Shown here piece by piece: positions 2,909-60,344 of a stretch of DNA of 64,000 nucleotides. Below the pieces are notes generated by a model, which was given only the letters and a program-made list of their open reading frames with translations, searched no databases and had not been told where the DNA came from. Made by a program: the position numbers and the translations under genes. The number at the start of each line of letters is the position of its first letter. Within the stretch, counting starts at the first letter, position 1. Source of the stretch: a virus (lineage: Duplodnaviria; Caudoviricetes); IMG/VR virus record IMGVR_UViG_3300033180_000001, positions 2,124-66,123 of that record; one strand, 5' to 3'.

Positions 2909-3351
2909 GCGACAACTTCATTTTCCACCGCGTGCTGCGTAGCGACAACGATGCGCGCGCACTGGTGGCCGCGCTCAAGTTGAATCGCAAGCCGATGGCT
3001 GATGCAGGCACACCGCTTCAGGTCACGGTCACGATCTACCGCGCGAGCAGGAAGCAGGAGCAAAACGCGCTGTATTGGGTGATCCTCGCGCAGATCGCGG
3101 ATCAGGCATGGGTCGCTGGTCGGCGCTTCGATGCCGAGACTTGGCACGTCCACTGCAAGCGGTCTTTCTTGCCAGAGGTGAACGAACGCGGAGCCGACAA
3201 GTGGCGGCTTCTGCCGAATGGTGATCGCGAATTGGTGATGTCGTCGACCGACCTCAACGTCAGCGAGTTTTCAACGTACCTCAACGAGGTCCAGGCATAT
3301 GCCACGACCGAACTGGGTGTGATGCTCTCTCAAAACCCGCGCGACCTTTGA
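2905..3351 (+). CDS. ninB: NinB/Orf family recombination mediator
   Basis: QNALYW..LAQIA.QAWV.G...W...K..FL...STDLNVSEFSTYLNEV.AY...LGV. Confidence 0.8.
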   Translation: MSDNFIFHRVLRSDNDARALVAALKLNRKPMADAGTPLQVTVTIYRASRKQEQNALYWVILAQIADQAWVAGRRFDAETWHVHCKRSFLPEVNERGADKWRLLPNGDRELVMSSTDLNVSEFSTYLNEVQAYATTELGVMLSQNPRDL

Positions 3352-14946: not shown

Positions 14947-15162
14947 GTGTTCACGGCCCTCACTCTGTTTCTCGCGTGCGCTGGGCTTGCCCTGGTGGCC
15001 GAGTTTCCGTGGCTCGGGATCATCTGTTTTCTGGCCTCTTATGGCACATCCAAACTGGCGGCGCGCGACGAGGACCACTTCATGGGAATGATGCTGGTGC
15101 TTGCTGGGGCCGGGTCCATCGCGATCACGTTGGACTATCTCGCTGGTCTCATTGCGCATTGA
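14947..15162 (+). CDS. small multi-TM membrane protein on opposite strand, probably leaderless
   Basis: TACAAT at 14935-40 ends 6 nt before GTG; ~3 hydrophobic segments. Confidence 0.55.
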   Translation: MFTALTLFLACAGLALVAEFPWLGIICFLASYGTSKLAARDEDHFMGMMLVLAGAGSIAITLDYLAGLIAH

Positions 15163-25953: not shown

Positions 25954-26348
25954 TGAAGCCTTTCGTACTGCACTCCGACGAAGGTGATCAGACCGTCGTC
26001 GTTGTACTTCGGGGTGAAGCCGACCGCGCACATGCCGTACTCCTTGCCATCGTCAGCATCGGGCTCGGGTTCGGGCTTGCTGACCATGCTGGCGATGAGT
26101 TGCAGCTGCGCGGTGAATCGAGCATCCTGCTCGGCCAGCAGTCGCTCGACCTCGGCCCGCGTGAAGCTCTCGACCGCTGGCGGTGCCACAGGCACGGGCA
26201 CGACTGGAGCGCGCGGCGTCGGCGCGGCGGTGATGGCCTTGGGCTCGATCTGTGCACGCGCCGAATTGAAGACCTTGCCGTCAATGGAAACTTCGGCCCC
26301 CGTGCGCAGCGCGTGGGCTCTCAGTTCGTCGGCGGTCATTTTCATCAC
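25950..26348 (-). CDS. hypothetical virion-region protein
   Basis: overlap coupling both ends. Confidence 0.65.
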   Translation of the reverse strand: MMKMTADELRAHALRTGAEVSIDGKVFNSARAQIEPKAITAAPTPRAPVVPVPVAPPAVESFTRAEVERLLAEQDARFTAQLQLIASMVSKPEPEPDADDGKEYGMCAVGFTPKYNDDGLITFVGVQYERLQ

Positions 26349-29300: not shown

Positions 29301-29434
29301 GCCGGCAGCGGCTTGCGCGCCTGCTCGGTCCTGATGCGATCTGTCTGTTCGCGGGCGACCCGCTCGATCACGTGGTCGGGCGTGCCGTCCTCGAATTGCA
29401 GCTGGGTGCCATCAAACAGCTCTGCGGTCGGCAT
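26345..29434 (-). CDS. internal virion/ejection protein with inorganic pyrophosphatase-like (InPase) domain
   Basis: PTDAQKEAGNYQKGHV...ENP.GS.RSG...HYGYIRGT.G.DGEHID.F...DEHKVMLGF...AY..NY. Confidence 0.85.
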   Translation of the reverse strand: MPTAELFDGTQLQFEDGTPDHVIERVAREQTDRIRTEQARKPLPADVKPSAGRDAGVSVESHFPQNAEGPAAGLASVRSARQAVQRQRDTPAVAPETASVLDQPSADLGPRSGTMSDAEYQANYGSNAKPKDQPRVGGDPRDTIQNSPMPAVVGGNIRRALGSGVPAAAVEGTLSGLSSIAKVVPGMVAGAADLADKAGLPGAEAVRDFSLGQARIADQFGDAVQGQGGDYYTKLVGNVFNSVAQNIPVIAFGLPGAAEIAGGKAVATVAANKARDNAMKALFTQTAGQEYADSRNSGFDPGESAARAGIFGAAEVLGERFGFHEQMAVLRAAVGKKQLGSHELGRVLATEMMKEIPGEELTTAIEFLADKYGPAAKNPKATLADYLEQAADTAVQTIGQTALMGAPAALKGTYQRADAVAAYDSAKLAGLHVTPPYTTDAPDAQRAKTVGIFNAVAAQYGMDPEAVKRATEVAKGMPAADVGPFLAKLTGALQKRNLVAKPVEQHAVDVLTAGPIDDPKVIEAKAKDAEKAAQPSTVPGEPKEIVSREATAEEDLTGLSEPSTATGPSIDEAAHQAAHSPTNDLPEPTDAQKEAGNYQKGHVKVAGLDISVENPEGSTRSGVGADGKVWSNDLKHHYGYIRGTIGQDGEHIDTFIKPGTPTDFNGTAFVVDQIDPATGQPDEHKVMLGFDSIEEARDAYHANYHQGWGGLGGIHAAPIADLKNWIATGDTTKPYGPAQPNVQPIAGEPAGGGAGRSAEPAGSRGNLGPGADGDQRRGGAAAAPVAGGRTAEPVRDAGGDAKPVARAIALVGPMPNSAKPLELRPNKDGSSTAWHDGHEVLDFEQGTPVQIPAGTSDAAALQIVKDSGAFGRRARYFEAPKQSAAALEAAPANAPSAAAPKPADSRVKASTPGSATSDAFLERKRAEKEAANATAKVDTAAPSVEAKPEVAATAPPAQPPTPVTRKLSDKEAFAQDYKAFEDRDVVRPVQIADTGQTATLKLAAAKAMRDLDARLKTLNELKACIGRHA

Positions 29435-40048: not shown

Positions 40049-41350
40049 TCAGCTCACGCGCTTGCGCACCACGCTGTCGATCACCAGCACACCGAAGTCG
40101 GTGGGCTCGAGGTCGCCGGCGGCGTTCGGCAGGCTCCAGCGCAGCTTCTGCTCGGCACCGATGATTTCACCGGCGAATTCGAGGTTGCGGCCGAAGTTCG
40201 TGCGGTTCTCCAGCAGGGAGTAGGTTTCCTCGCTGGTTTGGTTCGCGCCCGACGCCATGCCCAGCGCTTGCGCACCGAGGAACAGCGAGCGTGCCATCAC
40301 GTGCGTGGTGGACAGCGAAGCCGACACGGCGCCCGTGGTCTCCGCTGCGGTCAGCCGGTTGGCCACCGCCACGTAGTTGTAGGCGTCACTGGCCGCGAAC
40401 CGGATGCCAGTGGTCATCTTGCGCATCAGGATGCCGTTCCAGAGGATCGGCGAGCCGCTGAACAAGGGGTGGGCCTTCAGGTTGCCGTACTCTGCACGCT
40501 TCATCGCGTTGGTTTCGAACGTACGGATGTTGTTGCTCGCCGTCGTGTCGGTGATCAGACCGTCCCAGACCAGCTCGTCGATCAGCAGGATGCCCTTGAT
40601 GGGGTCATCGCTGGCCGCCGGGTCACCCGGGATCTGGATCGGCGCCATGCGCGTCGCCATTTCCGACCACAGCGCTGCCAGCTCGTCGATGTGCGACAGC
40701 TTCAGGATGTCGGTCGTGGCCAGGGATGCCGATTGCAGGCCGCCCTGGGTCAGCGACGCCGCATTCACCACGTAGTGGCGGTTGTACGTCGGCGCCTTCA
40801 GCGCGTTGATCATGATGTCCGCGAACTCGGGATCGCTTTGCTGCGGGACGATCCAGTCGTTGCCGTCCTGGTTGCCACGCGCGCCGGCCAGCATGACCTG
40901 GCAACGCTGCCAGCGGAAGCGCGGCATGCCGCCCTTGAGCTGCATCAGCGCGTTCTGGCGCATCGAGTGCGGGGTGCGCTGCTGGGTCATTTTGCCGCCG
41001 GCCGACACGGGGAGCGTGGCCATGTCGATCAGGATGTCCTGGCTGCTGTACTTCAGCGCGGCGCCCTTGCCCTCGGCATTGGTGTCACCCATCGTCGGGC
41101 GCAGCTTGATGACGTGCGCGCAATCGATCTGCACGCGATCGCCGGGGCCCTTGGTCAGCTCGTCGACGCGCACGATGGGCATGTCGATCGTGGTCTGCTG
41201 ACGCAGCTTGCGCATGGCCGAGTCCTCGGTGGACATCGGGCCGGTGAGCATCTTCACGGGCGTGGGTTGACGCGTCGCCATCGCGGCGAGCGCCTTGCTG
41301 TACTGCTTATTTGCCTGCGGCGAGCCGCTGGGGATGCTGGTGCTGGACAT
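40049..41350 (-). CDS. major capsid protein, N4-gp56-like (DUF4043)
   Basis: PIVRVDEL.K.PGD.V...MGD.NAEG.G..L...GGKMTQQRT.H..R...DFGVLVID. Confidence 0.9.
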   Translation of the reverse strand: MSSTSIPSGSPQANKQYSKALAAMATRQPTPVKMLTGPMSTEDSAMRKLRQQTTIDMPIVRVDELTKGPGDRVQIDCAHVIKLRPTMGDTNAEGKGAALKYSSQDILIDMATLPVSAGGKMTQQRTPHSMRQNALMQLKGGMPRFRWQRCQVMLAGARGNQDGNDWIVPQQSDPEFADIMINALKAPTYNRHYVVNAASLTQGGLQSASLATTDILKLSHIDELAALWSEMATRMAPIQIPGDPAASDDPIKGILLIDELVWDGLITDTTASNNIRTFETNAMKRAEYGNLKAHPLFSGSPILWNGILMRKMTTGIRFAASDAYNYVAVANRLTAAETTGAVSASLSTTHVMARSLFLGAQALGMASGANQTSEETYSLLENRTNFGRNLEFAGEIIGAEQKLRWSLPNAAGDLEPTDFGVLVIDSVVRKRVS

Positions 41351-42515: not shown

Positions 42516-44756
42516 TCACGCCGGAACTGCATCAGATGGGTGCATGGCGGGCTCGCTCGCCTGCTGGGCGACAGCCGGTGAGCCTTGGGCTTCGGCCATG
42601 GCCTCGTCGATCAGGCGCTGTTTCTCGGCCTCGGGGTCTGGTGCGGCTGCCGCTGTTTCGTCGACCGCGGCCTGGCGCTGGCCCAGCCCGACGGCGTGGC
42701 CAATCTCGAAGGTCTTGGCGCTGTTGAGCTCGGTCTCGCTCTTGATCTTGTTGATCTTCGCGGCCTGTTCCTCCATGCCAAGCTGCACCGCGGCCTGCTG
42801 GACCTGCTGCTGCTGGGCGGCTTGCTGGGCCTGCTGCTCCTGCATCTTGGCCTGGGCTTGCTTGTCGCCGGCCGTGGGCATGCCGGTGGCGCGGCGCAGG
42901 TCGTCGGCCAGTTCCATGCGGTTGGGCAGGTCGGTGGCCTCAATGAACGAGGGCGTGAGCACGGCCACGGCCTGCGGGTTGGCCTGCAGCGCGCCGATGA
43001 TCGTGGCGATCTGCTGCTGCTGCTGCATGCGGAAGCCGGGCGTGCTGGGCACCTCGCCGAGGCCCACGCGCACCGGTGCGTCGCTGACGTTGTTGACGAT
43101 CTGGCCCGACTGGGGATCGAAGTGGTTCAGCACCACCACGCGGCGCGAGCTGCCACGGCCGATCATGACCTGCAGGTCGGCGGTGTTGTGCCGGTTCACG
43201 ATGTTCTCGAGCAGCAGCTCGTACACCATGCGGCGGCTGTGGCGGTAGTTGTCGTTCAGGTCGCCCATGGCCACGGCGCCCTGCTCGATCAGCAGGCTGT
43301 TGGCGATGCCGCTGGTCACGCCGCTGGCTTGCTGGCCCAGTTGGCTGCCGTAGACGCCCGGCACGTCCTGGATCAGCTGCTTGGCGTCCTGCATGACGTC
43401 GACCTGCTCCTTTTGCAGGCTCAGGTTGTTGCCCACGCGGAAAGCGGTGTCGTTCTTGTTGGCGCGCTCGCTGTCGAGCACCACGGTCAGGTCGGGGCGG
43501 TTCACCCGGTCGGCGATGTCGGCCAGGGTGTTGACCTTGGTGTCCAGCGCATCGTTGTCCATCACGATCTGACGGGCGCGCAGCAGCCAGTTGATGCGGA
43601 TGCGCCGGCTGTTGTACTCCATCTGCGGGCTGATCATGCCTTCAACCAGGCCATACGGGCTTTGGTCCTCGTCGTCGCGGTAGGCGAAGAACGGCACGTA
43701 GGGGAAATTGCGCCGTGTGGTGCCCACGTCCTGCAGGCGGTGCGGGCCGGCGAACAGGCTCATGCGGACCTGTGTGGTCAGCTGCTTGGTCACCTTGACC
43801 TTGTTGGACATCACGGCCTGCACGTGCACTGGGTTGCTCTCGTCGAACAGGATGCGGCGCGACGGGCTCAGGTGCAGGATCACGCCGATGGCGGGGCACT
43901 TGTACCAAATCTCGTAGAGCTTCACGCGCTTGCGGGCGCCGTCGTACCAGTCGGTGCGGCGCTGGTAGTTGCTCCACCGGGTCTCGTCGGCCCAGTTGCG
44001 GTCCAGCACCATGCGCGTGGTGTCGTCCATGGTGTCGTCGAAGACGAAGCCGCTCCAGCCGTTGCTGACCTGGCGCAGCAACTCGCGGTTGCGCGGCATC
44101 TTGGCTTCCAGCTCGTCCAGGTCGCCCCAGCGCTTTCGCACGATCCACCGGCAGCCCTCGCGCAGCACGATGTTCGTGCTCTTCCAGTCCCACCAGAGCT
44201 CGCTGCGGTGCACGCTGCTGACGCGATCGGGGTAGTCGAGCGGATCTTCGGCCTCGGCCACCTCGACCCAGCCTACACCGGTGGTGACCTGGCCGAAGTA
44301 GGCATCCGACACGGCCATGTCGGCGAAGGTCTCGCGCTGGGCCTCTTTCATCGACTGGTTCAGCACGTCGCACACGTCGCTGCTCTCGTCGTCGTCGGCC
44401 TCGACCTTGATGTCGGTGCGGGCCTTGGCCTCGCTGCCGCACACGGAGCGGATCACGCGGCCCACCAGGTTGGTCGGGCGCACGTCCTGCAGGCCCTCGG
44501 CCACCAGCGCGGCCTCCTGCTCGGGCGTGAACTGCTTGCCGTCGACGAAGGCAGCCGCCACATCGGCGCGTGGGCGCCAGTTGGGTTGCTGGTCGCAGTC
44601 CGACACCAGGCGCTCGAGCCGGGTCAGGTTGAACGAGCCCGGGTGGGCCTTGTCCATGCTCGAGGTGTACTCGGGCGTGTCGTCGCGCACGTAGCGCAGC
44701 GTGGGGACTTCGAGGGCGCTGGCGTCGGTGGTGGCGGCTACTTGCTGGATGTTCAT
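42516..44756 (-). CDS. portal protein, P22-like
   Basis: DGKQF...N.....I..V.G.E...RTD...G.GWVEV...FPYVPFFAYR..E...PYGLV..M..PQ.EYN.R. Confidence 0.9.
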   Translation of the reverse strand: MNIQQVAATTDASALEVPTLRYVRDDTPEYTSSMDKAHPGSFNLTRLERLVSDCDQQPNWRPRADVAAAFVDGKQFTPEQEAALVAEGLQDVRPTNLVGRVIRSVCGSEAKARTDIKVEADDDESSDVCDVLNQSMKEAQRETFADMAVSDAYFGQVTTGVGWVEVAEAEDPLDYPDRVSSVHRSELWWDWKSTNIVLREGCRWIVRKRWGDLDELEAKMPRNRELLRQVSNGWSGFVFDDTMDDTTRMVLDRNWADETRWSNYQRRTDWYDGARKRVKLYEIWYKCPAIGVILHLSPSRRILFDESNPVHVQAVMSNKVKVTKQLTTQVRMSLFAGPHRLQDVGTTRRNFPYVPFFAYRDDEDQSPYGLVEGMISPQMEYNSRRIRINWLLRARQIVMDNDALDTKVNTLADIADRVNRPDLTVVLDSERANKNDTAFRVGNNLSLQKEQVDVMQDAKQLIQDVPGVYGSQLGQQASGVTSGIANSLLIEQGAVAMGDLNDNYRHSRRMVYELLLENIVNRHNTADLQVMIGRGSSRRVVVLNHFDPQSGQIVNNVSDAPVRVGLGEVPSTPGFRMQQQQQIATIIGALQANPQAVAVLTPSFIEATDLPNRMELADDLRRATGMPTAGDKQAQAKMQEQQAQQAAQQQQVQQAAVQLGMEEQAAKINKIKSETELNSAKTFEIGHAVGLGQRQAAVDETAAAAPDPEAEKQRLIDEAMAEAQGSPAVAQQASEPAMHPSDAVPA

Positions 44757-46258: not shown

Positions 46259-46560
46259 CAGGGCGCCTCCCATGGGCGAGTGCGCGACTCGTTGGCCACG
46301 ATGCGCTTGGCCTCTACACGCGGCATCTTTTCAACGACCATGAGCTGTTTGAGCCTGGCCGCTGTCCATGCCACTTCGGCCTCGCTCAGGCCGCTGATAT
46401 GGGCCAGCATCTTCACGCCGTTGTAGGTGCCGTCGCCATTGCTGAACTGGCTGAAAAGGCCTGAAGTATCGCCAGACGATGCCGAAACCGTCGTCGCGCG
46501 GTCTCGGCCCGCGATTTCTCGCACCTCAAGCCCATTCTGGTATCGCGTGACGGTACTCAT
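46258..46560 (-). CDS. hypothetical protein between terS and terL
   Basis: GAGGA RBS; overlaps both neighbours. Confidence 0.6.
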   Translation of the reverse strand: MSTVTRYQNGLEVREIAGRDRATTVSASSGDTSGLFSQFSNGDGTYNGVKMLAHISGLSEAEVAWTAARLKQLMVVEKMPRVEAKRIVANESRTRPWEAP

Positions 46561-47255
46561 GCGTCCTCGGCTGCGCTGCGCGCGCGTGGGCTGTCAGGAT
46601 CACCGCGGCCGGTGTAGTCCTTGATCAGCACGGTGTAGCGGTCGCCGTTGGTCCCACCCTCAGTGTCGAGGCCGAACGCCTCGCGCTCCATGCCGATGCA
46701 TTTGTGCAGCGCGTCGGCCAGATCCTTGGCGATTTTCGTGCGCGCCGGTAGGCTGTTGATCAGGTCGGCCATATCGCGCAGTGCAGCGATCGCGGGTTCG
46801 CTCGGGTTGGACAGGGCGTCGTAGATCATGCCGAACCGCTCGGGTGCGTCGATGGTCAGGCTGAGCTCGCGCGCCAGCCCCCGGATGATCGACCGCAGCA
46901 TGGCGATGTCTTCACGGTGCCCGAGTTGCACCATTGCCAGCTGCTGAGCGCCAGCTTCGGTGATCTGCGCGTCAGTGAAAAGTGGTTCCGGCGTAACCTT
47001 TGGCGTAACCACTTCCGGCCAGTCCTGTGTAACCGCTGAGCTTGCGACGATGCGGTCCGCCTTGGCGGTGATGTCGGGTCTCAGGTCACGTTCCCATCCG
47101 TGCTTGCGTGCGTGCTTGATGATCGCTGCGCGCGAGACGCCGAATTGCTTGGAGATTGCAGTGGGGGTGCGAATGCCAGCGCGCCAGTGTGGCTCGATGG
47201 CTTGCCAGTCGACCGGGACCAGGTCGGCCTTGCTGGGCTTGGGGGCCTTGGTCAC
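46557..47255 (-). CDS. terS: terminase small subunit
   Basis: DWQAIE..WRAG......I..QFGVSRAAIIKHARKHGW.RDL HTH; ...IGMEREAFGLD. Confidence 0.8.
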   Translation of the reverse strand: MTKAPKPSKADLVPVDWQAIEPHWRAGIRTPTAISKQFGVSRAAIIKHARKHGWERDLRPDITAKADRIVASSAVTQDWPEVVTPKVTPEPLFTDAQITEAGAQQLAMVQLGHREDIAMLRSIIRGLARELSLTIDAPERFGMIYDALSNPSEPAIAALRDMADLINSLPARTKIAKDLADALHKCIGMEREAFGLDTEGGTNGDRYTVLIKDYTGRGDPDSPRARSAAEDA

Positions 47256-47479
47256 AGCGCGTTGTACTCGGCTTGCAGCGCGGCGCACTTGGAGTCGATG
47301 TCGGCGCAGATGGCGTGGACGGCGGTGGCCCAGACCTGGCCGTCGACCTCGATGCGGACCACATCGCCCATGCTTTTCGTCCCTGGTGGCTTCTGGTTCC
47401 ACCAGCGGGCACGGAGATCCTTGAGGTCGTCGATGGTGTCCTTGAGCTTCTGGGCCTTGGCCAGGGTGTCGTCGTTCAT
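47252..47479 (-). CDS. hypothetical protein
   Basis: GGAG RBS, GTGA overlap with terS. Confidence 0.65.
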   Translation of the reverse strand: MNDDTLAKAQKLKDTIDDLKDLRARWWNQKPPGTKSMGDVVRIEVDGQVWATAVHAICADIDSKCAALQAEYNAL

Positions 47480-51485: not shown

Positions 51486-51604
51486 GGCTTGGCTTCCATG
51501 CAGTCAGTGGCGCAGCCGCAGTCGGTATCCGTGTCGCAGCCCTTGCTGTAGACCCAGAAGATCAGCAGCAGGACCACCAGCAACAGCAGCAGATGCGTTT
51601 TCAT
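51482..51604 (-). CDS. small membrane-anchored Cys-rich peptide (40 aa)
   Basis: MKTHLLLLLVVLLLIFWVYSKGCDTDTDCGCATDC; ATGA overlaps. Confidence 0.5.
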   Translation of the reverse strand: MKTHLLLLLVVLLLIFWVYSKGCDTDTDCGCATDCMEAKP

Positions 51605-51798
51605 GACAGCAGTGCCCGGATTTCTTCTCGCCTGATGCGCAGCGCCTTGTAGTCATCCCACTCGGCCTCGTTCAGGGCATCGTGGCGATGTTCCAGAAGA
51701 TCCTCGGCCTCGTCGATGCGACGGTCAAGGTGCTGCGCTTCGTGTTGCAACGCAAAGCGAGTGAACAAGCGCCAGCGGGGGATGGGGATGGTGGTCAC
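51601..51798 (-). CDS. hypothetical protein
   Basis: GAGGAG RBS. Confidence 0.6.
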   Translation of the reverse strand: MTTIPIPRWRLFTRFALQHEAQHLDRRIDEAEDLLEHRHDALNEAEWDDYKALRIRREEIRALLS

Positions 51799-52058
51799 GG
51801 GTTGGTCTCCTCGTCGTCAGGCTCTGCACACACGGCGTCGAAACAGGTCTCGCACATGCCGCTGATGGCGACCTCATGCCAGCCGTCGACGCTGAACACG
51901 TTGACGTTGCGGCGGAATGGCTGCGCGCAGTTGATGCAGGCCGTGCGGCCACGCACCTCAACCGGCAACGCCTCGACCTGTTCGCGCGTCAGCGCGGCGA
52001 TGTCCTCGGGCGAGCCTGACAGAGTACCGTCGATGTTGCGCACGGGGCCCATGATCAC
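51795..52058 (-). CDS. zinc-finger-like hypothetical protein
   Basis: CINC...E..ISGMCETCFD. Confidence 0.65.
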   Translation of the reverse strand: MIMGPVRNIDGTLSGSPEDIAALTREQVEALPVEVRGRTACINCAQPFRRNVNVFSVDGWHEVAISGMCETCFDAVCAEPDDEETNP

Positions 52059-52324
52059 TCCCCGTTCTCACAATCGACCATGCCACCGCGCGGCGTCAGC
52101 TTCCACGTGCGCAGCAGCCGGTGCTTGATCTTGTCGTCGTTCAGGATGCGGCACACGCCGGACTGGTCCACGGTGACGTCGACCAGCTCAATGCGCACGC
52201 TTTCGCGGATCACGCCGGGCCGGGCCTTGGCATCATTGTGCGCCTCGAGTTGGGTCCGCTCATAGCGTGCGCGCGGTGCGTCCTCGTCAGGGATCGCGCT
52301 GTCAAAGACTCTGAAGAAGTGCAT
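52055..52324 (-). CDS. hypothetical protein
   Basis: GAGGA RBS. Confidence 0.6.
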   Translation of the reverse strand: MHFFRVFDSAIPDEDAPRARYERTQLEAHNDAKARPGVIRESVRIELVDVTVDQSGVCRILNDDKIKHRLLRTWKLTPRGGMVDCENGE

Positions 52325-52389
52325 CGTTCTGTCCTCTGTTGCATGGTCGATAGCCACTCGGGAGCCCAGCACGCTGGGCAACCGGCTGG

Positions 52390-52548
52390 TTATTTCGCCT
52401 TCGGGGCCTTGCTGGGCCAGTTCTTGGTTTTGGCCACCTTGTCGGCGGTCGCCTTCTTCGTTTTCTTGCCTTTGGCCTCTGCGGCCAGCGGGGCGAAGAT
52501 CAGGGCCAGGCTCACGGCCAGGGCGGTCAGGGTGGGGGTCTTCAGCAT
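52390..52548 (-). CDS. small secreted Lys-rich peptide (52 aa)
   Basis: AAGGAG RBS; signal peptide ending AEA then KGKKTKK... Confidence 0.6.
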   Translation of the reverse strand: MLKTPTLTALAVSLALIFAPLAAEAKGKKTKKATADKVAKTKNWPSKAPKAK

Positions 52549-52623
52549 CGTTCTCTCCTTGTGGTTGCGGCGGCCAGGATGGCGTCACCTTGCTGCCCCC
52601 TGTCACGGGGCAGACGGGTGCCG

Positions 52624-53751
52624 TCAGGCGGCGACCAGCTCGCGCTTCTCGGCCTTGGCCACGGTGGCCACTTCACGCCACTGCGCCGGGGCCATCTCGA
52701 TCACCTCGCCACCGATGCGCTCGAACTCGGTGGCGCGGTCGTAGGCCACGGCGTCTTCCTGGCTGTAGCGGGTGATGGCGCTGTGCACCCCGTAGCGGCT
52801 CAGGTCACCGCCGGCGATCAGCGCGGCCAGCACGCCCTTGCGCTCGCCCTCGTTGAAGCTGAAGCGGCGGCCCACACGCTCCACGACCTCGATGACGTTC
52901 TCCGCGGGCACCTGGTCGGCAGCGGCCTGGCCGAGGCGCTGCGCGGTGGCGGCGAACTTGGCACGCTCGAAGCACGCGGCCACCATGTCCGTGGTCTGCG
53001 CCCACACGGCCTCATTCGTCAGGCGCTTGGTGTTGTCGGTCAGCATCTCGTACACGTCGTCCGACAGCTCGGCGCGCTTGCCAAGGTGGGCGCGGCGCAT
53101 GTTGGCGCCGAAGCTGGCCAGGTTCGTGCAGGCCTTGGTCCACACGCCGTACTCGACCAGCAGCGAGCCGCTGCCCACTTCGCTGTTGCTGATGGTGATG
53201 GCCGGGCTGATCGTGTCGAAAATCGTGTGGCCGCCGTCGCCCATCATCTTGCCGGTGGGCACGCTCTCCTCGATCGTGCGGTCCACGGCCTTGATGTACA
53301 GGCGGCGGTCGGTGATTTCGCACGACAGGATCATCAGGTCGCGCTGCAGCAGCACCGGCAGCACCGCGTCGGCCAGGTCCTCGTTCTCGAGCTGGCGGAA
53401 GCTGTTTGACAGGAAGGCACGCAGCTTGCCGTCCAGCGTGCGCAGCATGCGCGCGTCCTTGGCCTTGTCCTTCAGCCAGCGGTTGATGTTGTCGATCAGC
53501 AGCTTGGGGTCGTCCGCGAGCATGCGGCGGTAGTAGGCCATCGGGATGCCGGCGTACTCCGCGATCTGGCCGTGGGCCAGGTCGTTGATGCCGAACTGAT
53601 GCAAGGTGCCGTTGGCGATCGCGATGGCGGGCTTGTCGTCCACCACTGCGAGCTCGAACTTCGGCACCGGCGCGATGAAGTCCCGCTTTGCCTCCGCGCG
53701 CCGCTCGATTTCAGCTGCGAGGTCTTGCAGGGAACGTCCGATCTTTGCCAT
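52624..53751 (-). CDS. DUF932 (LGT_TIGR03299-like) protein
   Basis: GRSLQDLA.E.ER....KRDFI...AH.QIA...GIP..YY.RM...RTLDG..RAFLS...ISNSEVG.G...CTN. Confidence 0.8.
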   Translation of the reverse strand: MAKIGRSLQDLAAEIERRAEAKRDFIAPVPKFELAVVDDKPAIAIANGTLHQFGINDLAHGQIAEYAGIPMAYYRRMLADDPKLLIDNINRWLKDKAKDARMLRTLDGKLRAFLSNSFRQLENEDLADAVLPVLLQRDLMILSCEITDRRLYIKAVDRTIEESVPTGKMMGDGGHTIFDTISPAITISNSEVGSGSLLVEYGVWTKACTNLASFGANMRRAHLGKRAELSDDVYEMLTDNTKRLTNEAVWAQTTDMVAACFERAKFAATAQRLGQAAADQVPAENVIEVVERVGRRFSFNEGERKGVLAALIAGGDLSRYGVHSAITRYSQEDAVAYDRATEFERIGGEVIEMAPAQWREVATVAKAEKRELVAA

Positions 53752-53799
53752 GGTGTCTATCTCCGGTTTGAGTTGCGCCAGCAACGCGCTGGCCCATTC

Positions 53800-54120
53800 C
53801 TATATGCCAGTCCTGTGCCATGCCTTTGAAGGCTGAAAACCAACTTCTTTTCCCACGTCATGAGAGTCGGATGACAGTTTTCGGTTTGAGGGTGACACTT
53901 CTCGGTCGGTGGGTGACAGTTTTCGGTCCGTGCTAGCTGTTTCATTGATGGCGGAAATTTCTATGCCATGTCGAGCCATGCGGTAGCGCATCTGGCGCAG
54001 CGATAAGCCCATCGCCATGCCGGCTCTCGTCCGGTTGTAGCGGTTCTGCTTCAGTGCCTCGATCAAAAGGCCACATTCGATCTGGTCAAGGTGGTCGTCG
54101 AGGTCTTCGGGTATGGCCAC
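53800..54120 (-). CDS. stand-alone Fis-type HTH resembling the C-terminal DNA-binding domain of PilR (NtrC family)
   Basis: P.DLDDHLDQIE..LL.EAL.QNRYNRTRAG..MGLSLRQMRYRMAR.GI; AAGGAG RBS; no receiver or AAA+ domain. Confidence 0.8.
   Translation of the reverse strand: MAIPEDLDDHLDQIECGLLIEALKQNRYNRTRAGMAMGLSLRQMRYRMARHGIEISAINETASTDRKLSPTDREVSPSNRKLSSDSHDVGKEVGFQPSKAWHRTGI
53805..53820 (-). promoter_or_regulatory. sigma-54 (-24/-12) promoter upstream of DUF932 gene
   Basis: TGGCAC-AGGAC-TGGCA, exact GG-N10-GC spacing; predicted +1 ~53794. Confidence 0.7.
53838..53850 (+). promoter_or_regulatory. IHF-like site between enhancer and sigma-54 promoter
   Basis: AACCAActtcTTT vs consensus WATCAANNNNTTR (2 mismatches). 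Confidence 0.35.
53872..53928. repeat. three direct repeats at 21-bp period: bEBP enhancer (PilR-like) sites
   Basis: TGACAGTTTTCGGT 53872, TGACACTTCTCGGT 53893, TGACAGTTTTCGGT 53914. Confidence 0.8.
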
Positions 54121-54132
54121 TGTCGTCTCCTT

Positions 54133-54230
54133 GTCTAACGCTCTAACGGGGTGCTACCCAGGTTGCCTAGCTACCACGCCTAACCCTTCCTTCAAGCGGA
54201 CCCCGCCAGCCCATCGGGCTCTGGTGGGGG
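54133..54230 (+). mobile_element. decayed integron attC-like half site plus extra RYYTAAC-like cores
   Basis: GCCTAACccttccTTCAAGCGGAC at 54178-54201 followed by apex hairpin; GTCTAAC 54133, CTCTAAC 54141. Confidence 0.4.
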
Positions 54231-54728
54231 TGGGGTTTTGATTTGCGAGTCCACCCAATTCCGCATGTAAGTCCAGCGCTTCTCTGCAACGTCTGGCACC
54301 GACACGCGCACGGAGCGTGTGTGTCGGCCATAGTCGGGGTAATGCGGGCGCACCGGGCCGCAGAACTCGATGTCAACCCATTCGTAGTCGTCGATGTACT
54401 CGTCGTTCATGTAGACGATCTCGCGAACCATCGCAGGCGCGATGCCGAACGCTTCGGCCACGCCTTCCGGGTCTTCCGGGTCGAGCGTATCGAGCGCGAT
54501 GCCACGCTGCGCGCCGAGCACACCAAGTGTGCAAAACTCGCCGTCTTCTGTCGCCAGCAATTCGGCAACCAACGCCTTGACCGGCATGGCGTCGAGCGCT
54601 GCAAGAATCTCTCGCAGCGTTTGCTGCCCACGCTTGCCGCGAATCGCGGAGTTGACCGCACCGCGCCAACGCCCCATTGCGAGCGGGTCATCGTCGCCGA
54701 AATCGTCTGTGTATCCGCTTCTGCTCAT
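54192..54728 (-). CDS. conserved phage hypothetical protein
   Basis: MSRSGY.DD...GRWRGAV.SAIRGKRGQ..LRE..AALDAMP.K.L. Confidence 0.75.
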   Translation of the reverse strand: MSRSGYTDDFGDDDPLAMGRWRGAVNSAIRGKRGQQTLREILAALDAMPVKALVAELLATEDGEFCTLGVLGAQRGIALDTLDPEDPEGVAEAFGIAPAMVREIVYMNDEYIDDYEWVDIEFCGPVRPHYPDYGRHTRSVRVSVPDVAEKRWTYMRNWVDSQIKTPPPPEPDGLAGSA

Positions 54729-55051
54729 TTCGGCTCCCCTCCCTCTACCGCTGGGACAGACCCAAGGGCTGCGATCAAGTCGTCCAGATCAGCGATTGCC
54801 GTCTCTAGCATGACGTTGCAGTCCTTGCGCGCGCCCTGGATCTTGGCGAGATGGATCACGTCGCGGATTTGTTGCAGATCGCTCGGCTCCCGTACCGCTG
54901 GCACTGCAATAGCCGTAGCAATCGATTCCGCCACATAGTCGCGCAGCTGGGCGTCGGTCTTGATGTATTGCAGCGGACTGAACTCTGTGAACCCTGCTGG
55001 CACCTCCCGTACCGCAGGGGCTGGGACAGGTGGGGTGGTGGGTTCGTTCAT
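54725..55051 (-). CDS. hypothetical protein
   Basis: GGAG RBS; internal VPAVRE duplication. Confidence 0.6.
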   Translation of the reverse strand: MNEPTTPPVPAPAVREVPAGFTEFSPLQYIKTDAQLRDYVAESIATAIAVPAVREPSDLQQIRDVIHLAKIQGARKDCNVMLETAIADLDDLIAALGSVPAVEGGEPK

Positions 55052-55806
55052 GACGTTCTCCAGTCGGGTTGCGGTGCACGCAGAAAGTCCAGCAGGTGCT
55101 GCACCGGGCGGCTCGTGATCTTTGCGGCCCAACTGCGCGCCTCTGTCCAGTCGTTCGGGTTGCGGCCCTCGCGCCGGGCCGCAAAGCTCCAGGCCATCGA
55201 GTCGGCTGTTTCGAGCAGCGAGCGCACCAGCGGGTCAGCGAGCGCGGTTGTCTTGAGGCCGAAGCCATGCAGGCGCAGGTCGGGCCGCACGCGCTTGATC
55301 GCGAGCAGCACGGCGGCGATGGCGCCGGGGTCGCCGTTTCGCTTGCAGACCGATCCGACGCCGACCCATTGGCCTTGCGTCAGGCGGTCGCCGTACATTT
55401 CGACGTGCGCCACGTAGCTCTCGGGCTCGTAGCCTTGCAGCACCGGCATGATGTAGACGCCGGGCTTCTCTGCAAGCAGCGCGTCGTATCGCATGACGGT
55501 CAGGCGCTGGTGTTGCTCGACGGTGTGCCCAGTCTTCTCGAGGATGTGGGGTTCGCACATCCAGTCCTGCGCCACAGCTGCCAATAGGTTGCCGCACTTC
55601 GCCCAGCGGCGGATCTCGCGGGCGTATTCGGCCACCGACTGACGGTAGCGACCGTGCCTGCTGATTTCGGTGAAGGCGCCGCTGTCCATGATCCAGTCGC
55701 CGACGACGAAATCAGACTTGCGCATGCGAAGCCGGGTCACGCTCACGAAGGCCTCGGGGAAGTGCTTCGCGTCGGATGGCTGGTGCAGCCCGGGGAAGAA
55801 TCTCAT
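55048..55806 (-). CDS. TGT-fold DpdA-like 7-deazaguanine DNA transglycosylase candidate
   Basis: DSGAFTE, QDWMCEP, PVLQG, GVGSVC, LHGFG.K, DSMAWS. Confidence 0.75.
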   Translation of the reverse strand: MRFFPGLHQPSDAKHFPEAFVSVTRLRMRKSDFVVGDWIMDSGAFTEISRHGRYRQSVAEYAREIRRWAKCGNLLAAVAQDWMCEPHILEKTGHTVEQHQRLTVMRYDALLAEKPGVYIMPVLQGYEPESYVAHVEMYGDRLTQGQWVGVGSVCKRNGDPGAIAAVLLAIKRVRPDLRLHGFGLKTTALADPLVRSLLETADSMAWSFAARREGRNPNDWTEARSWAAKITSRPVQHLLDFLRAPQPDWRTS

Positions 55807-56624
55807 TCCGGCGCCTCGCTCGGCTGTTCGCCTGCACCGGCCGCATAGCCCGTTCCATCGCAGACATCACAGCGGGCGCCTTCCTCGTCGGTACGGTTCC
55901 CAAAGCAGACGTGGCATCGGCTCGGCTCTGTGGGTTCGCCTGCACGCCTCTCAGATTCGATCTCGTCGATGTCGGCGATGAAGTAGAAGCGATCACCGCC
56001 TGGCGACATCAGCGCATCGCGCCCGCCGTGCATCTTGACGACGCGCCACCCGGGTTCGCCTGCACCAGCAGGAGCGGCGTAGAGAGGTCGCATTTCGTAC
56101 AGCTTGGGATCGCTGTTGCGGGCCGGGTCGGTCACGGCTTTGGCATGTTCGTAGGTCGTTGGCAACCAGCCGCCCCACTCGCTAAAGTGGTCCTGGCTGT
56201 CGTGAGCAAGGTGGCCCGGCGTCCTCACGTATCGGCTTCGCATGAGCGCGGCCACCGGCTCGGCGCTTGGCTGGGCCACCGGGGCAGCAACGATGGTCGC
56301 AAAGGCGCGTCGAATTCTGGCGATCTGATCCTCCGAGAAATCGGACATCGACATGGGTCTGTCCGCCTCCGGAACGTTCGAGTGCAACTCGTTCATGAAG
56401 CGAATGATTTGCGCCTCGGTCGGCTGGGCCACTGCTGCGGCCTGGGTGGCTCGGAGCTTGGCTTCCAGGTCGACGATGATCCGCTCGGCGGCATTCAGCA
56501 CAGGCCGGCGCGCTGCGTAGATCATCGATTCCTGCATGGCAACCAAAGCGTTGAGCGTGTCGGCGTATTCGCTTTGGCTGAATTCGTCGGTCGGCTCTGC
56601 CTGTTGGGATGGGGTGGTGGTCAT
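55803..56624 (-). CDS. mosaic hypothetical protein
   Basis: linker-joined segments (AQP..EPVA, PLYAAP), C-terminal CxxC pairs. Confidence 0.65.
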   Translation of the reverse strand: MTTTPSQQAEPTDEFSQSEYADTLNALVAMQESMIYAARRPVLNAAERIIVDLEAKLRATQAAAVAQPTEAQIIRFMNELHSNVPEADRPMSMSDFSEDQIARIRRAFATIVAAPVAQPSAEPVAALMRSRYVRTPGHLAHDSQDHFSEWGGWLPTTYEHAKAVTDPARNSDPKLYEMRPLYAAPAGAGEPGWRVVKMHGGRDALMSPGGDRFYFIADIDEIESERRAGEPTEPSRCHVCFGNRTDEEGARCDVCDGTGYAAGAGEQPSEAPE

Positions 56625-56635
56625 GGTCTTCTCTT

Positions 56636-57055
56636 TCAGAGTTGTGTTTGCTCAATGCGCACCAACAGACGAGCGCCGTTCTCGTCGGGCCGCATCCTCA
56701 AGGCGGTCAGGCTGCGCACCCACTTGTCGTCCTCGATCGCCACGCCCTTGAGCGAGTCGAGGACCACCTTGTTGACGTTGTCGAGGTCGAGGCACTGCAC
56801 GGTGTCGTCCCAGCCTTCCGGGTCCAGTCGCTCGCGCTTGGCCCAGTCAAGCGGCCGGTGCGGGTAGAGCCGCACACTGATGGCCACGCGGCCCAGAAGC
56901 GGGTTCACGATGCCCGCCGCCAGGGCAGCGTCGATGACCTGCTTGCGGTACTTCTTCGCCTCGCTGGTCGGAACGATGGTGATGTGCGTGCCGATTCGCA
57001 CTGGGCGCCAGTACCTATTCGCACTTACGGGATAAGGCAATGTCAGGGCGATCAT
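56636..57055 (-). CDS. rusA: RusA Holliday junction resolvase
   Basis: LPYPVSANRYWR...DLDNVNKVVLDSLKGVAIEDDKWV. Confidence 0.9.
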   Translation of the reverse strand: MIALTLPYPVSANRYWRPVRIGTHITIVPTSEAKKYRKQVIDAALAAGIVNPLLGRVAISVRLYPHRPLDWAKRERLDPEGWDDTVQCLDLDNVNKVVLDSLKGVAIEDDKWVRSLTALRMRPDENGARLLVRIEQTQL

Positions 57056-57309: not shown

Positions 57310-57956
57310 GCCTCACCCCGCAGCCGCTTCCACTCATCCGCGTAGCCACCCACTACAGGCTCGTTCACGGTGTAGCGGGTATCTGTCGAGCTCGGGCAGT
57401 GCTGCACGACGACATGGTCCGGCTTGAAGGCCTCGCCGCTGTGCAAGACCGTCTTGATCGGCCTGCGCGGCTTCATCTTGAGCTCGTCGGTTGGGTTAAA
57501 CGGCGTGGTGGCCCGTCGTGCCAGATCGATGCGCGGCGTCTTGGCCAAGCGCGGGATTTTCAGGGGCATGGGTTCCTCCTTGGGTTTGGCCTGGTCGCGC
57601 GCCATCGCGCTGATGAAAAAGGTGGCTGGCGGTCCATTGCGGCGCCCGCGGCCCCCACCAAGCTGGAACAGGGTGCCGGCCTTCACCAGGTACGCGCACA
57701 TTTCGCGTACCTTCTTGACGGGACGGCGGACCTCTATGGCGATGTGGTCGCACGTCAGACCGGCCAGCAGGTCTTCGTCCCAGAGTCGCAGAAGTTGATC
57801 GCGCGCTGGTGTCGGCCAAGCCTTCGGTGCATTGCTGCGCAGCATGTCCTGCGCCCATTCAATCGTCAATGGGTCGAGTCCAGCTTGGCCAATCTCTGCA
57901 GCGCGTACGATGTCTCGAGCAACGGTCAGCAGGCGGTTGTACTTCTCGCGTGTCAC
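57306..57956 (-). CDS. hypothetical protein with possible winged-helix region
   Basis: GTGA overlap with dnaB, GGAGG RBS. Confidence 0.6.
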   Translation of the reverse strand: MTREKYNRLLTVARDIVRAAEIGQAGLDPLTIEWAQDMLRSNAPKAWPTPARDQLLRLWDEDLLAGLTCDHIAIEVRRPVKKVREMCAYLVKAGTLFQLGGGRGRRNGPPATFFISAMARDQAKPKEEPMPLKIPRLAKTPRIDLARRATTPFNPTDELKMKPRRPIKTVLHSGEAFKPDHVVVQHCPSSTDTRYTVNEPVVGGYADEWKRLRGEA

Positions 57957-59329
57957 AGTGGGCCTCCTTGGGCTTTTTTCTCGGGTTTCAGCAGATCGTC
58001 GGCTTTGTACTCCGACTCGCCCCACGTCATCAGCTCGGGCCAGAAGTCCAGCGCCAGGCACCCCAGCGGGCCCTGGCGGTTTTTCAGGATGTCCAGGCCC
58101 CGGATGTACGCGCCACGGCTGTCCATCGCGCGCAACGGGAATAGCGCCATCAGCACGTCAGCGTCGGCCTCGAGCGCGCCGCAGTCCTTGAAATCGGACA
58201 TGATCGGCCGCTTGTGCGCACGCTCGTCGACCTTGCGGCCCAGCGCCGACAGCACCAGCATCGCGCAGTTGCGGTCCTTGGCCAGCTGCTTGATGGCGCG
58301 ACTGATCACCTCGAGCTCGCCGTTGCGGTTGTTCTCGCCCTCGCCCATGCCCTTGCACAGCTGCACGTAGTCGAGCACCACGATGTTGACGCCGCGCACG
58401 CTGCGCACCTTGATGCCGATGTCGCCGGCGGTCAGGCCAGGCTGCGGATCGACGTGGAAGTTGATGGCGCGGATCTTCTCGACGGCCTCGCTGAGCCGGC
58501 CCCATTCCATATCGCCCAGCTTGCCGGTCTGGATGTGCTCGTAGTTGATCTGCCCCACGGTGGACAGCACGCGCTCGCCCACCTCGGCGTCGGGCATCTC
58601 CTGGCTCAAGTACATGGTGCTCAGGTTGTCCAGCAGCGCGCTGTGCACGGCCTGCCAGAGCGCCAGCGCGGACTTCCCCATGCCTGGCCGGCCACCCAGC
58701 AGGTAGACCCGGCCGGGCTGGAAGCCGCCGCGCAGCATGCGATCCAGCTGCTGCAGCCCGGTGGTCCAGCCATGCACCACGGTGCCCTCGTTCATCGCGG
58801 TGATGTGGTCCAGCCGCTCGATGATGATGTGCTCGATCGCGCGCGGCGTGTTGGCCACGGTCCCACGCTCGAGGTCGCCGAAGCCGTGGACGATCTTGTC
58901 CAGCTTGTCCGAGGCCGTACCCTGGCCGCGTGCGATCGTCGTGGCCTCGTCGGCCCGTGCGATTAGCTGGCGCTCCCGATGGGTCTCCGCGACGATTTCA
59001 GCGTGCCGACGGATGTGCGCTGCGCTGATCACGCTGTTCGCCATGTCGTTCAGGTAGCGCATCGTGACCTGCTTGGCCACATGGTCGCTGCGGCCCAGTT
59101 CCTCGCACCGCTGGTACACGGTGATGATGTCGGCCGGCTTGCACGCATGCACCATTGACGCGATCACTTCGTAGACCGTGCGGTGCTGCACCGCGTAGAA
59201 CATGCGGCCTTGCAGGATGTCGCCCGCACGGTCGAATGCGGCGTTGTCCTGCAGCAGCGCGCCCAGGACGCCCTGCTCGGCTTCTTCGGACCAGGGTGGC
59301 GCTTGCAGGGTGAATTCGTCTTCGTTCAT
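57953..59329 (-). CDS. dnaB: DnaB-like replicative helicase
   Basis: PPWSEEAEQGVLGALL, GGRPGMGKS, LDYVQL, ISRAIKQLAK, G.LE.DAD, KNRQGP.G. Confidence 0.95.
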   Translation of the reverse strand: MNEDEFTLQAPPWSEEAEQGVLGALLQDNAAFDRAGDILQGRMFYAVQHRTVYEVIASMVHACKPADIITVYQRCEELGRSDHVAKQVTMRYLNDMANSVISAAHIRRHAEIVAETHRERQLIARADEATTIARGQGTASDKLDKIVHGFGDLERGTVANTPRAIEHIIIERLDHITAMNEGTVVHGWTTGLQQLDRMLRGGFQPGRVYLLGGRPGMGKSALALWQAVHSALLDNLSTMYLSQEMPDAEVGERVLSTVGQINYEHIQTGKLGDMEWGRLSEAVEKIRAINFHVDPQPGLTAGDIGIKVRSVRGVNIVVLDYVQLCKGMGEGENNRNGELEVISRAIKQLAKDRNCAMLVLSALGRKVDERAHKRPIMSDFKDCGALEADADVLMALFPLRAMDSRGAYIRGLDILKNRQGPLGCLALDFWPELMTWGESEYKADDLLKPEKKAQGGPL

Positions 59330-59331
59330 GG

Positions 59332-59535
59332 CTACTTGCTTGTGGCGATCGTGCGAATGGTGTTGGCGTTGATCCAGACGCGTCCATCGAACTCGATCAA
59401 TGGCATGTCGACGTCGGTAACGATCGCAAATGCTGGGTAGCCTTGCAGCGGCCAGTCCAAGTGATCAAGGCTAAAAGTGATCACGCATCGTTCACCGATC
59501 AGCTTTTTCATTCCGGTGGTGGTTTCGTTGTTCAT
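59332..59535 (-). CDS. hypothetical protein
   Basis: ATGA overlap with initiator stop. Confidence 0.55.
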   Translation of the reverse strand: MNNETTTGMKKLIGERCVITFSLDHLDWPLQGYPAFAIVTDVDMPLIEFDGRVWINANTIRTIATSK

Positions 59536-60344
59536 TCGGTCTTCTCGATCACGTGTTTCATGCCTTTGTCTGTCATCAGAAAATCAATGTCGCAACGCCA
59601 ATTCGCATGCTCGTCGCTGCGCTTGCCTCGACCCATCAGAAAGTCGTTCTCCCTGGCCCGCTCAAAGTATTTCCGCATCCACGCCAGGCCCTGTTCGTCG
59701 TTCTCGGCGCGTCGCCTGCCTTCGATGCTGCTGGTCAGCACCCATGCCCAGACCTTTTGCAGCGCGGCCTTGCGCTTGGCAGGCATCAGCCGGACAGCTG
59801 GCAGCTCTGGCAGCACCTCGTGGTACAGCGCCACGATCGACTCGATCGGTGCTTTGGGGGCGGTCGTCCGTTGCTTGCCAACGGACCTAGGTCTCTTAAT
59901 CTCTTCTTCAGGTTCAGGTTCAGGTTCAGGCCGCGCATGGCGGGCATTTGTCAGCGGCTCGCCGTCATCTGTCCGCGGATTTACATGCAAGCCTTTGATT
60001 TTGTTGACTGCATCGTCGTCGTCGACCATCAAACCATCGGGCGGCAGCGGGTGTTTCGCGCGCTTCACGCGCAGCCGTTGGCGGTATCTCGGCACGAAAC
60101 CGTACCCTTTCGCGCCCACTTTGTACGGCCTGATCAGGTCCTGCGCGGTCAACTCATCGAGTAGCGGCTGCAGGTTCGACTGGTCCAGCCCAGCCTCGCG
60201 GCCCAGCCTGAAGTGGTTGGCCTCGAACAGACCAATGTCGTCGGCATGCAGCAGGATCGTGACGTACAGCCAACGAGCCGAGATCGACACCTTGTGCACG
60301 CGCTCCGAGCTGGTGATGCCGTCACGGATCATCTTCGATGCCAC
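59532..60344 (-). CDS. replication initiator protein
   Basis: IRDGI.SSERV..VS..AR.LY....ADD.G N-domain, PEPEPEPE linker, C-domain YHEVLPELP...W....DFL; upstream of dnaB. Confidence 0.8.
   Translation of the reverse strand: MASKMIRDGITSSERVHKVSISARWLYVTILLHADDIGLFEANHFRLGREAGLDQSNLQPLLDELTAQDLIRPYKVGAKGYGFVPRYRQRLRVKRAKHPLPPDGLMVDDDDAVNKIKGLHVNPRTDDGEPLTNARHARPEPEPEPEEEIKRPRSVGKQRTTAPKAPIESIVALYHEVLPELPAVRLMPAKRKAALQKVWAWVLTSSIEGRRRAENDEQGLAWMRKYFERARENDFLMGRGKRSDEHANWRCDIDFLMTDKGMKHVIEKTE

Follow-up and report, generated by a model that had tools for sequence, protein, structure and literature searches.

The sigma-54 holoenzyme opens a promoter only when an AAA+ activator is bound nearby, and these activators, the bacterial enhancer-binding proteins (bEBPs), act as hexamers. 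Sigma-54 promoters need an ATPase activator from the host, and few of them have been described in phages. The described circuit closest to the one considered here is PilS-PilR-RpoN at the pilin gene pilA, and the PilS-PilR system controls a common phage receptor. In Pseudomonas aeruginosa, PilR sites are described as a TGT-N11-AGA element together with GTCT elements (PMC6058289, citing Jin et al. 1994). NorR at norVW reportedly reaches full ATPase activity and forms open complexes only when all three of its enhancer sites are available (PMC2831303). Here we analyze a cassette in a 64,000-base stretch (hereafter, the window) of IMG/VR virus record IMGVR_UViG_3300033180_000001, a record of 66,123 bases rated 100% complete by CheckV. 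On the minus strand, from 54120 down to 52624, a gene for a lone helix-turn-helix (HTH) domain resembling the DNA-binding end of PilR, three candidate PilR sites and a predicted sigma-54 promoter stand ahead of a gene for a DUF932-like protein. From sequence comparisons, we give an even chance to the reading that this phage cassette plugs one gene into the host PilS-PilR-sigma-54 circuit, with the HTH-only protein as antagonist. The parts of the cassette are as follows.

53800-54120, minus strand: open reading frame (ORF) of 106 aa for the HTH-only protein; GTG start at 54120, GGAG at 54130-54127
53971-54090, minus strand: HTH_8 domain (PF02954, Fis-type), aa 11-50 of that ORF; E 6.8e-8, 32.6 bits (cut-off 22); its sole Pfam match
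53869-53927, minus strand: enhancer (upstream activating sequence) with three PilR-type candidate sites, 17-nt repeats; counted from the inferred transcription start, these span about -75 to -133
53805-53820, minus strand: predicted -24/-12 promoter, TGGCAC-N5-TGGCA, reading TGGCACaggacTGGCA; inferred start near 53794
53774-53796, minus strand: GC-rich leader hairpin (GCCAGC / GCUGGC), -16.3 kcal/mol
52624-53751, minus strand: target gene, 375 aa, DUF932-like, phrog_1362; ATG at 53751, GGAG at 53764-53761, G+C at third codon positions (GC3) 0.93
52593-52613, minus strand: GC-rich stem-loop just past the target stop codon; the 61-nt stretch folds at -27.9 kcal/mol (z -1.09, not significant)

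An earlier reading of the letters alone (the sequence-only reading) had listed a lone Fis-type HTH gene on this strand, three sites phased at 21 bp, a -24/-12 promoter, a GGAG and a downstream gene, and each of these was recovered here. The 106-aa ORF carries the C-terminal Fis-type HTH of bEBPs, and the PF00158 AAA+ sigma-54 interaction domain is absent from it. The earlier statement that no AAA+ activator is encoded in the window can be widened, as a profile search found no PF00158 match anywhere in the complete virus record. Models of Fis itself score far under their cut-offs on the phage HTH (NF001659, 12.8 bits versus 99; NF002517, 14.1 versus 122). The closest solved structure by sequence, and the sole one, is 2m8g (E 5e-6), which we take to be the DNA-binding domain of an Aquifex NtrC-type activator. 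In alignment, the recognition helix LSLRQMRYRMAR of the phage HTH is identical to that of host PilR (invariant columns G38-R50), and GLSLRQMRYRMAR is invariant across the phage and host proteins. The phage gene adjoins phage genes only, with no PilS-type sensor kinase beside it.

The functional portion of the ORF spans roughly aa 1-57, the remainder being an open frame over regulatory DNA. Downstream of the HTH, GC content is 0.50 and GC3 is 0.45, compared to a GC3 of 0.74 in the HTH part. The sequence-only reading had placed the sites and the promoter within the gene's own 3' half; the frame is indeed open there, but the low GC3 indicates that this half is regulatory DNA over which the frame stays open by chance. 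The frame ends at a TAG directly behind the -24/-12 element.

To which bEBP is the HTH related? In a collection of 5.8 billion proteins, the eight relatives nearest to it in length are all C-terminal pieces of bEBPs, with 55-67% identity over the HTH; two of these bear the Joint Genome Institute (JGI) name PilR, and no other specific name occurs. Among 83 longer relatives, JGI names 24 PilR, 10 generic sigma-54 regulators and one 'hypothetical', and none as another specific activator. The best matches in named genomes come from Aquabacterium, Leptothrix, Sphaerotilus, Rubrivivax, Roseateles, Ideonella and their relatives. In all five named genomes the 57-aa HTH matches one bEBP (E 4e-18 to 3e-17; 60-64% identity), with the runner-up bEBP at E of 2.7e-6 or larger, and a PilS-like PAS-HisKA-HATPase kinase gene lies upstream of the matching bEBP in both loci scanned. 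Judged by these comparisons (one bEBP per genome at E ~1e-17), the phage HTH is specifically PilR-like, which bears out the resemblance to the PilR C-terminus noted in the sequence-only reading. What the phage carries is the DNA-binding domain of PilR alone, in diverged form.

We then compared the three repeats with host pilin promoters. The repeats (family D1) lie at 53927-53911, 53906-53890 and 53885-53869, with start-to-start distances of 21 and 21 bp, or two turns of the helix. Host pilin genes were drawn from the five named genomes and from 81 further genomes of the same bacterial family. At 25 of 41 pilin starts, which represent 22 distinct promoters, we found TGGCA[CT]-N5-[CT]TGC. Upstream of 19 of these promoters there are one or more dyads that fit NGACN-N4-7-NGTCN; in most, TGAC and GTCA flank a spacer rich in A/T. 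These host dyads stand 40-190 bases ahead of TGGCAC, most of them 55-140. A matrix built from the 60 half-sites of 30 dyads, taken from host pilin upstream regions alone, ranks the phage repeats 1, 3 and 5 among ~128,000 window positions. The window has three matches to A[AG]AA-N-TGTCA[CT], a pattern in the host style, and they are the three repeats. As controls served the surroundings of target-gene homologues at 80 loci: the same matrix threshold gave 21 matches in 890,488 positions, and none of the 80 control loci had two matches inside 80 bp. A half-site with an A/T-rich spacer and then [TC]GTCA is present; an inverted dyad can be read in only two of the three phage units, and its spacer there is 6 nt. 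At the level of sequence, the repeats match the sites that precede the sigma-54 promoters of host pilA, a comparison to which the earlier reading had pointed.

One could suppose that the enhancer is served not by PilR but by a different host sigma-54 activator with a PilR-like DNA-binding domain. The label PilR comes from JGI automatic naming, and the host bEBPs fall below every curated NCBIfam cut-off because NCBIfam has no PilR model; in addition, full-length paralogues give a weaker second HTH match (E 8e-11 to 1e-6) in all five genomes that were re-examined. However, the bEBP that matches best stands behind a PilS-like kinase, and the matrix that singles out the phage repeats contains nothing but pilin upstream sequence. 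Of the alternatives weighed in this work, we hold a different activator to be the least probable, with only a faint chance of being correct.

The predicted promoter carries GG-N10-GC with TGGCAC at -24, and 48 bases separate it from the last repeat. Taken alone, such a motif is not significant: with one mismatch allowed, the -24/-12 consensus occurs four times in the window versus 3.15 expected. The weight of the element accordingly comes from its context and conservation, not from motif frequency. A 22-column matrix made from the 22 host pilA promoters places the phage promoter second among 127,958 window positions, and its match to host pilA promoters is thus supported by sequence comparison. 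Separately, the top match to this matrix in the window is at 3139-3160 on the plus strand (16.76 bits, TGGCAC-N5-CTGCA). It sits inside a coding frame (~2905-3351, plus strand), has no TGTCA-type sites upstream, and may be an intragenic sigma-54 site or a chance occurrence.

From the inferred start, a leader of ~43 nt runs to the GGAG and then to the ATG of the target gene. The hairpin noted in this leader by the sequence-only reading is present, but folds no better than shuffled sequence (z -0.74; 47 of 200 shuffles fold as well). There is no Rfam match in 51500-54800, and no sigma-70-like promoter was found in 52000-54800. No RNA run was found to contain the stretch. Contigs of four runs (X2, X3, X4 and X6) matched it only in short segments, which lie on the target gene and on the codons of the recognition helix; none of them covers 53788-53949.

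The cassette recurs as a unit in a second locus. Scanning IMG/VR with an alignment of stand-alone HTHs, we found, on a 7.9-kb viral contig, a locus (L162) in which AGGAG and ATG open a 95-aa HTH-only frame that is 41% identical to the window HTH. Three TGTCAC sites follow, spaced 21 and 31 bp; 50 bases past the last of them stands CTGGCACgaaggTGGCT, and after it a hairpin leader. The target gene of L162 encodes a protein that shares 36% identity with the window target protein over its first 140 residues (E 6e-30). When the two DNAs are aligned, the islands of identity outside the HTH coding sequence are the three sites and the -24/-12 element. The host half-site matrix ranks the L162 sites 1, 2 and 3 in their own locus, and the host promoter matrix ranks the L162 promoter first. 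The L162 hairpin has a similar place and is just as unremarkable (z -0.92), with two base pairs changed on both sides in this comparison of two sequences only. The sequence-only reading had proposed a look for the cassette in other phages, and the part order HTH-only gene, three sites, sigma-54 promoter and homologous target is conserved in this diverged viral contig.

An all-against-all protein search gave five more short stand-alone PilR-type HTH candidates, namely P0165, P0150 (from a 65.6 kb contig), P0152 (from an 87.6 kb contig), P0216 and P0140, which, from their protein sequences, may belong to further cassettes. The tail of P0165 ends in GFQGQKGWHRTGI (WHRTGI), the same reading that the window frame gives over its promoter, and the tails of P0150 and P0152 hold KSVT, KLS and EKRHP, which can be back-translated to AAAGTGTCAC-type sites. 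Across stand-alone relatives that are 41-47% identical, the recognition helix is intact. Judging from the tails of the proteins, P0150, P0152 and P0165 appear to join the window and L162 in a small, old cassette family. A tree of HTH cores (52 columns, L162 not included) places the stand-alone HTHs on long branches, 0.5-2.3 versus a host median of 0.046; it does not settle the branching order and is compatible with one origin or with several.

Other searches returned no additional members. In a metagenome scan, all 80 loci proved to be full-length or contig-cut bEBPs, with no further cassette. A search of genomes of the family gave matches in 331 of 401 (a tally that includes the unpublished genome G150, on which we make no separate claim), and all 150 matches listed lie in open frames of at least 269 aa. 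Scanning IMG/VR with a DNA pattern yielded 32 loci, among which only L294, on the L162 contig, is real. For isolate phages, tblastn with the HTH found two records, both with a full atoC-like gene. Three proteins seen along the way have a different makeup. On another viral contig (L163, 2141-2653, plus strand), a gene for a protein of 170 aa ends in a PilR-like HTH of 50 residues with 49% identity to the window HTH; the HTH is fused to an unrelated N-terminal part, and no -24/-12 element follows the gene. Among several proteins that match the HTH query in three stretches, P0129 (189 aa) and P0145 (307 aa) have no AAA+ domain, which gives them an unusual multi-HTH look.

The gene behind the promoter is of the DUF932 type. 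Pfam finds no match in the target protein even at E<=1, and its DUF932 model (PF06067) thus misses the protein, although that model does match 6 of 31 homologues (best E 1.9e-5). By language-model features and by predicted structure, the protein groups with the DUF932 proteins of phages, plasmids and integrative elements: in the ESM Atlas its features score 0.97 to DUF932 clusters, with 28 of 30 matches carrying DUF932, and its structure aligns with a TM score of 0.90 to a cluster that is 79% DUF932. The DUF932 identity given in the sequence-only reading therefore stands in a weaker form, in that the target protein is a remote DUF932 relative that the Pfam model does not reach. The word 'operon' in that reading goes too far, as only one gene is shown after the promoter.

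What the protein does is harder to approach. Its AlphaFold2 model (pLDDT 75, pTM 0.57) has no Foldseek match in the PDB at E<=0.001, and in VIA-align residues 21-116 are weakly, though recurrently, similar to oligonucleotide/oligosaccharide-binding folds (RPA, Teb1, Cdc13), with Z of 5.1-6.9, inside the stated noise range. PADLOC has no match for the protein. In a Variovorax integrated plasmid, a DUF932 gene is reported to have been mutated repeatedly after phage exposure (bioRxiv 10.1101/2025.06.20.660599). Of 8,000 candidates that were scored, at least 1,489 are related to the target protein at E<=0.001, many of them with 60-70% identity. The stem-loop just past its stop codon (52593-52613) may be a terminator; it lacks a T run and was not called as one. 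Just downstream of the target gene, at 52390-52548 on the minus strand, is a 52-aa ORF with a signal-peptide-like N-terminus and a lysine-rich tail. It is nested in a longer frame of 183 aa (52055-52606), and the real gene is one or the other.

Our preferred reading, which takes over from the sequence-only reading the wiring to host PilR and the competition for its sites, can be put as a sequence of steps. Host PilR, phosphorylated by PilS, would bind the three phased sites, the three dimers making up one hexamer, and this binding would open the sigma-54 promoter, such that the target gene would track the pilin or pilus status of the host. Firing of the phage promoter in a manner dependent on PilR and sigma-54 is, we think, probable. 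The HTH-only protein presumably binds the same sites but cannot activate. It would therefore be a competitive antagonist, a role that we infer with slightly less than even confidence, and would decide when, or at what threshold, the phage promoter fires. As its recognition helix is that of PilR, the protein would also be likely to lower transcription of host pilA. A more ambitious version strikes us as doubtful: that the PilR decoy shuts off pilin transcription in the host, such that neither rival phages that depend on pili nor the phage's own progeny would find their receptor, while the three-site enhancer reads the PilS-PilR signal (the membrane pilin stock) to time the DUF932-like gene. In this version, a transcription-factor decoy of viral origin would be coupled to a sigma-54 sensor circuit that the phage has hijacked.

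Several observations, taken up here and in the next two paragraphs together with the alternatives they touch, weigh against our preferred reading. The host is placed in the Burkholderiales group and no closer, and no PilR exceeds ~67-71% identity over the HTH. The -12 element of the phage promoter is TGGC (TGGCA; TGGCT in L162) and not TTGCW, whereas the hosts have CTGC in 21 of 22 promoters and TTGC in the other one. The sequence-only reading had included an integration host factor (IHF)-like site, which we could not find again: with up to one mismatch, the IHF consensus does not occur between the repeats and the promoter (53820-53870), and its eight matches in the window, against 8.9 expected, are all elsewhere. 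There is also no terminator between the HTH gene and the target gene, so read-through could express the target as well. The missing terminator, the off-consensus -12 and the ordinary frequency of the -24/-12 motif are all what one would expect if the HTH-only protein were a small phage repressor, with the three repeats as operators gating read-through into the target and the -24/-12 element unused. Such a repressor leaves unexplained why the -24/-12 element was kept in L162 despite diverged flanks and is visible in the tail of P0165, why the promoter ranks so high by the host pilA matrix, and why the distance from sites to promoter is alike in the two loci. We rate it as very unlikely.

The sites themselves are atypical. 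In the phage units the right half (TGTCAC) is strong, the left half (GGACC, CGACC and AAACC) weak. The phage dyad is a 16-mer, its spacer exceeding by one base that of most host dyads (14-15-mers; two host dyads are 16-mers). The departure from host sites, toward a strong right half and a longer spacer, is alike in the window and in L162, and several of the stand-alone HTHs share NRT[RK]AG where host PilR has NRTAAG. Shared deviations of this kind could mean that the HTH-only protein helps rather than hinders, occupying or bending the enhancer or forming mixed dimers with PilR and thereby aiding PilR on atypical phage sites; the phage promoter would then outcompete pilA for limiting PilR. On the other side, simple competition is the default expectation for a domain without AAA+, and we know of no precedent for a helper of a bEBP that consists of a DNA-binding domain only. 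A helper role is, in our judgment, quite unlikely.

The last group of observations concerns how the cassette arose and how widely it is used. Only the target gene is common to the window and all 80 related loci, whose neighborhoods are not conserved; among the 80 viral loci closest to that of the target gene, none has the HTH and one has a weak -24/-12 motif. The control module is thus rare, and dispensable for the target gene. The cassette likely originated by capture of the 3' end of a pilR gene together with a PilR-dependent promoter following it, which would yield the order HTH, sites, promoter. In Geobacter, pilA lies directly downstream of pilR (PMC2725144), and capture from such a layout would give the part order seen here. 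No such layout was seen in the host family searched: a -24/-12 motif, and a weak one, turns up in the 700 bp behind pilR at only 2 of 80 loci, which argues against capture from a pilR-pilA junction of this family.

Given such an origin, the HTH ORF might be a leftover with little or no function on a captured moron, in which a mobile DUF932-like gene would have gained a ready-made promoter driven by host PilR. The mobility of the target gene across unrelated neighborhoods fits, as does its GC3, which is the window maximum, is equalled only by the portal and head genes (0.91-0.92) and compares to 0.73-0.85 in the neighbors. The Geobacter layout and the long branches of the stand-alone HTHs point the same way. 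A relic, however, should decay, and the recognition helix is intact in relatives that have diverged this far; the HTH start codon and a ribosome site (GGAG or AGGAG) are kept in both the window and L162, and the HTH part has a coding-type GC3. The rarity of a sigma-54 promoter behind pilR in the host family also counts against this scenario. We consider it unlikely, if the least so of the alternatives, and retain antagonism by the HTH-only protein as the preferred reading.

The cassette belongs to the phage and not to flanking host DNA, since it is bracketed by replication genes and packaging genes. The window has a GC content of 64%, and by PHROG matches its minus-strand gene order is lambdoid-like, with the cassette after a DpdA-like gene and before the small terminase, and with internal virion proteins after the major head protein. 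The genes that define this setting are:

59532-60344, minus strand: replication initiator (PHROG match)
57953-59329, minus strand: DnaB-like helicase (PHROG match)
56636-57055, minus strand: RusA (PHROG match)
55048-55806, minus strand: DpdA-like transglycosylase (Pfam DpdA, E 8e-41; phrog_1279)
46557-47402, minus strand: small terminase (PHROG match)
42516-44756, minus strand: portal (PHROG match)
40049-41350, minus strand: major head protein (PHROG match)

The DpdA-like gene suggests 7-deazaguanine modification of the phage DNA. When 52000-56000 was searched against isolate phages, no DNA relative was found outside this gene (20 records, 60-80% identity, 2-14% of the query). Two long minus-strand genes encode what are probably ejected or internal virion proteins: a 2,065-aa protein (15149-21346), whose matches are large phage proteins of unknown function and part of which is methyltransferase-like, and a 1,029-aa protein (26345-29434) with an endolysin-like domain.

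An activator's DNA-binding end, combined with matching sites, would be a compact means by which a phage could both monitor a host two-component system and interfere with it. The cassette also offers a testable handle on DUF932-type function in phages and on the PilR recognition sequence in Burkholderiales.

How does the cassette compare with described systems? It resembles PilS-PilR-RpoN at pilA in having an HTH with the PilR recognition helix, pilA-like upstream sites and a pilA-like -24/-12 element at the usual enhancer distance. It differs in that the domain is phage-encoded and stands alone, without receiver or AAA+ domains, and in that the promoter drives a DUF932-like gene instead of pilin. 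The three sites at exact 21-bp phasing, with their weak left half and extra spacer base, also set it apart. Morett and Bork reportedly suggested in 1998 that the nucleoid protein Fis derives from the C-terminal domain of NtrC. In both Fis and the HTH-only protein, the DNA-binding domain of a bEBP has given rise to a natural protein that stands alone; unlike Fis, the HTH-only protein is far closer to PilR and adjoins its own cognate-type sites. NorR at norVW also has three enhancer sites upstream of a sigma-54 promoter, but there the bEBP is a different one, the gene belongs to the host and no stand-alone DNA-binding domain is involved.

A further comparison is with phage proteins that shut off type IV pili. 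Tip and Aqs1 target the assembly or the components of the pilus and are not known to affect pilA transcription. Action at the same level is reported for a P. aeruginosa filamentous-phage protein (PMC8764522), for Zip (bioRxiv 2024.03.05.583538) and for prophage FimU-like proteins (PMC12952977). If the HTH-only protein lowers pilA, the outcome would be similar, with fewer pili and exclusion of pilus-dependent phages. The proteins of these three reports are not described as acting on pilA transcription. A full-text literature search, which left most subscription journals uncovered, found no description of a phage-encoded PilR-like domain or of a PilR-dependent phage promoter. Enhancer-dependent sigma-54 promoters, domain-only competitors and phage shut-off of pili are each known; within the literature searched, what is new is their combination in a phage.

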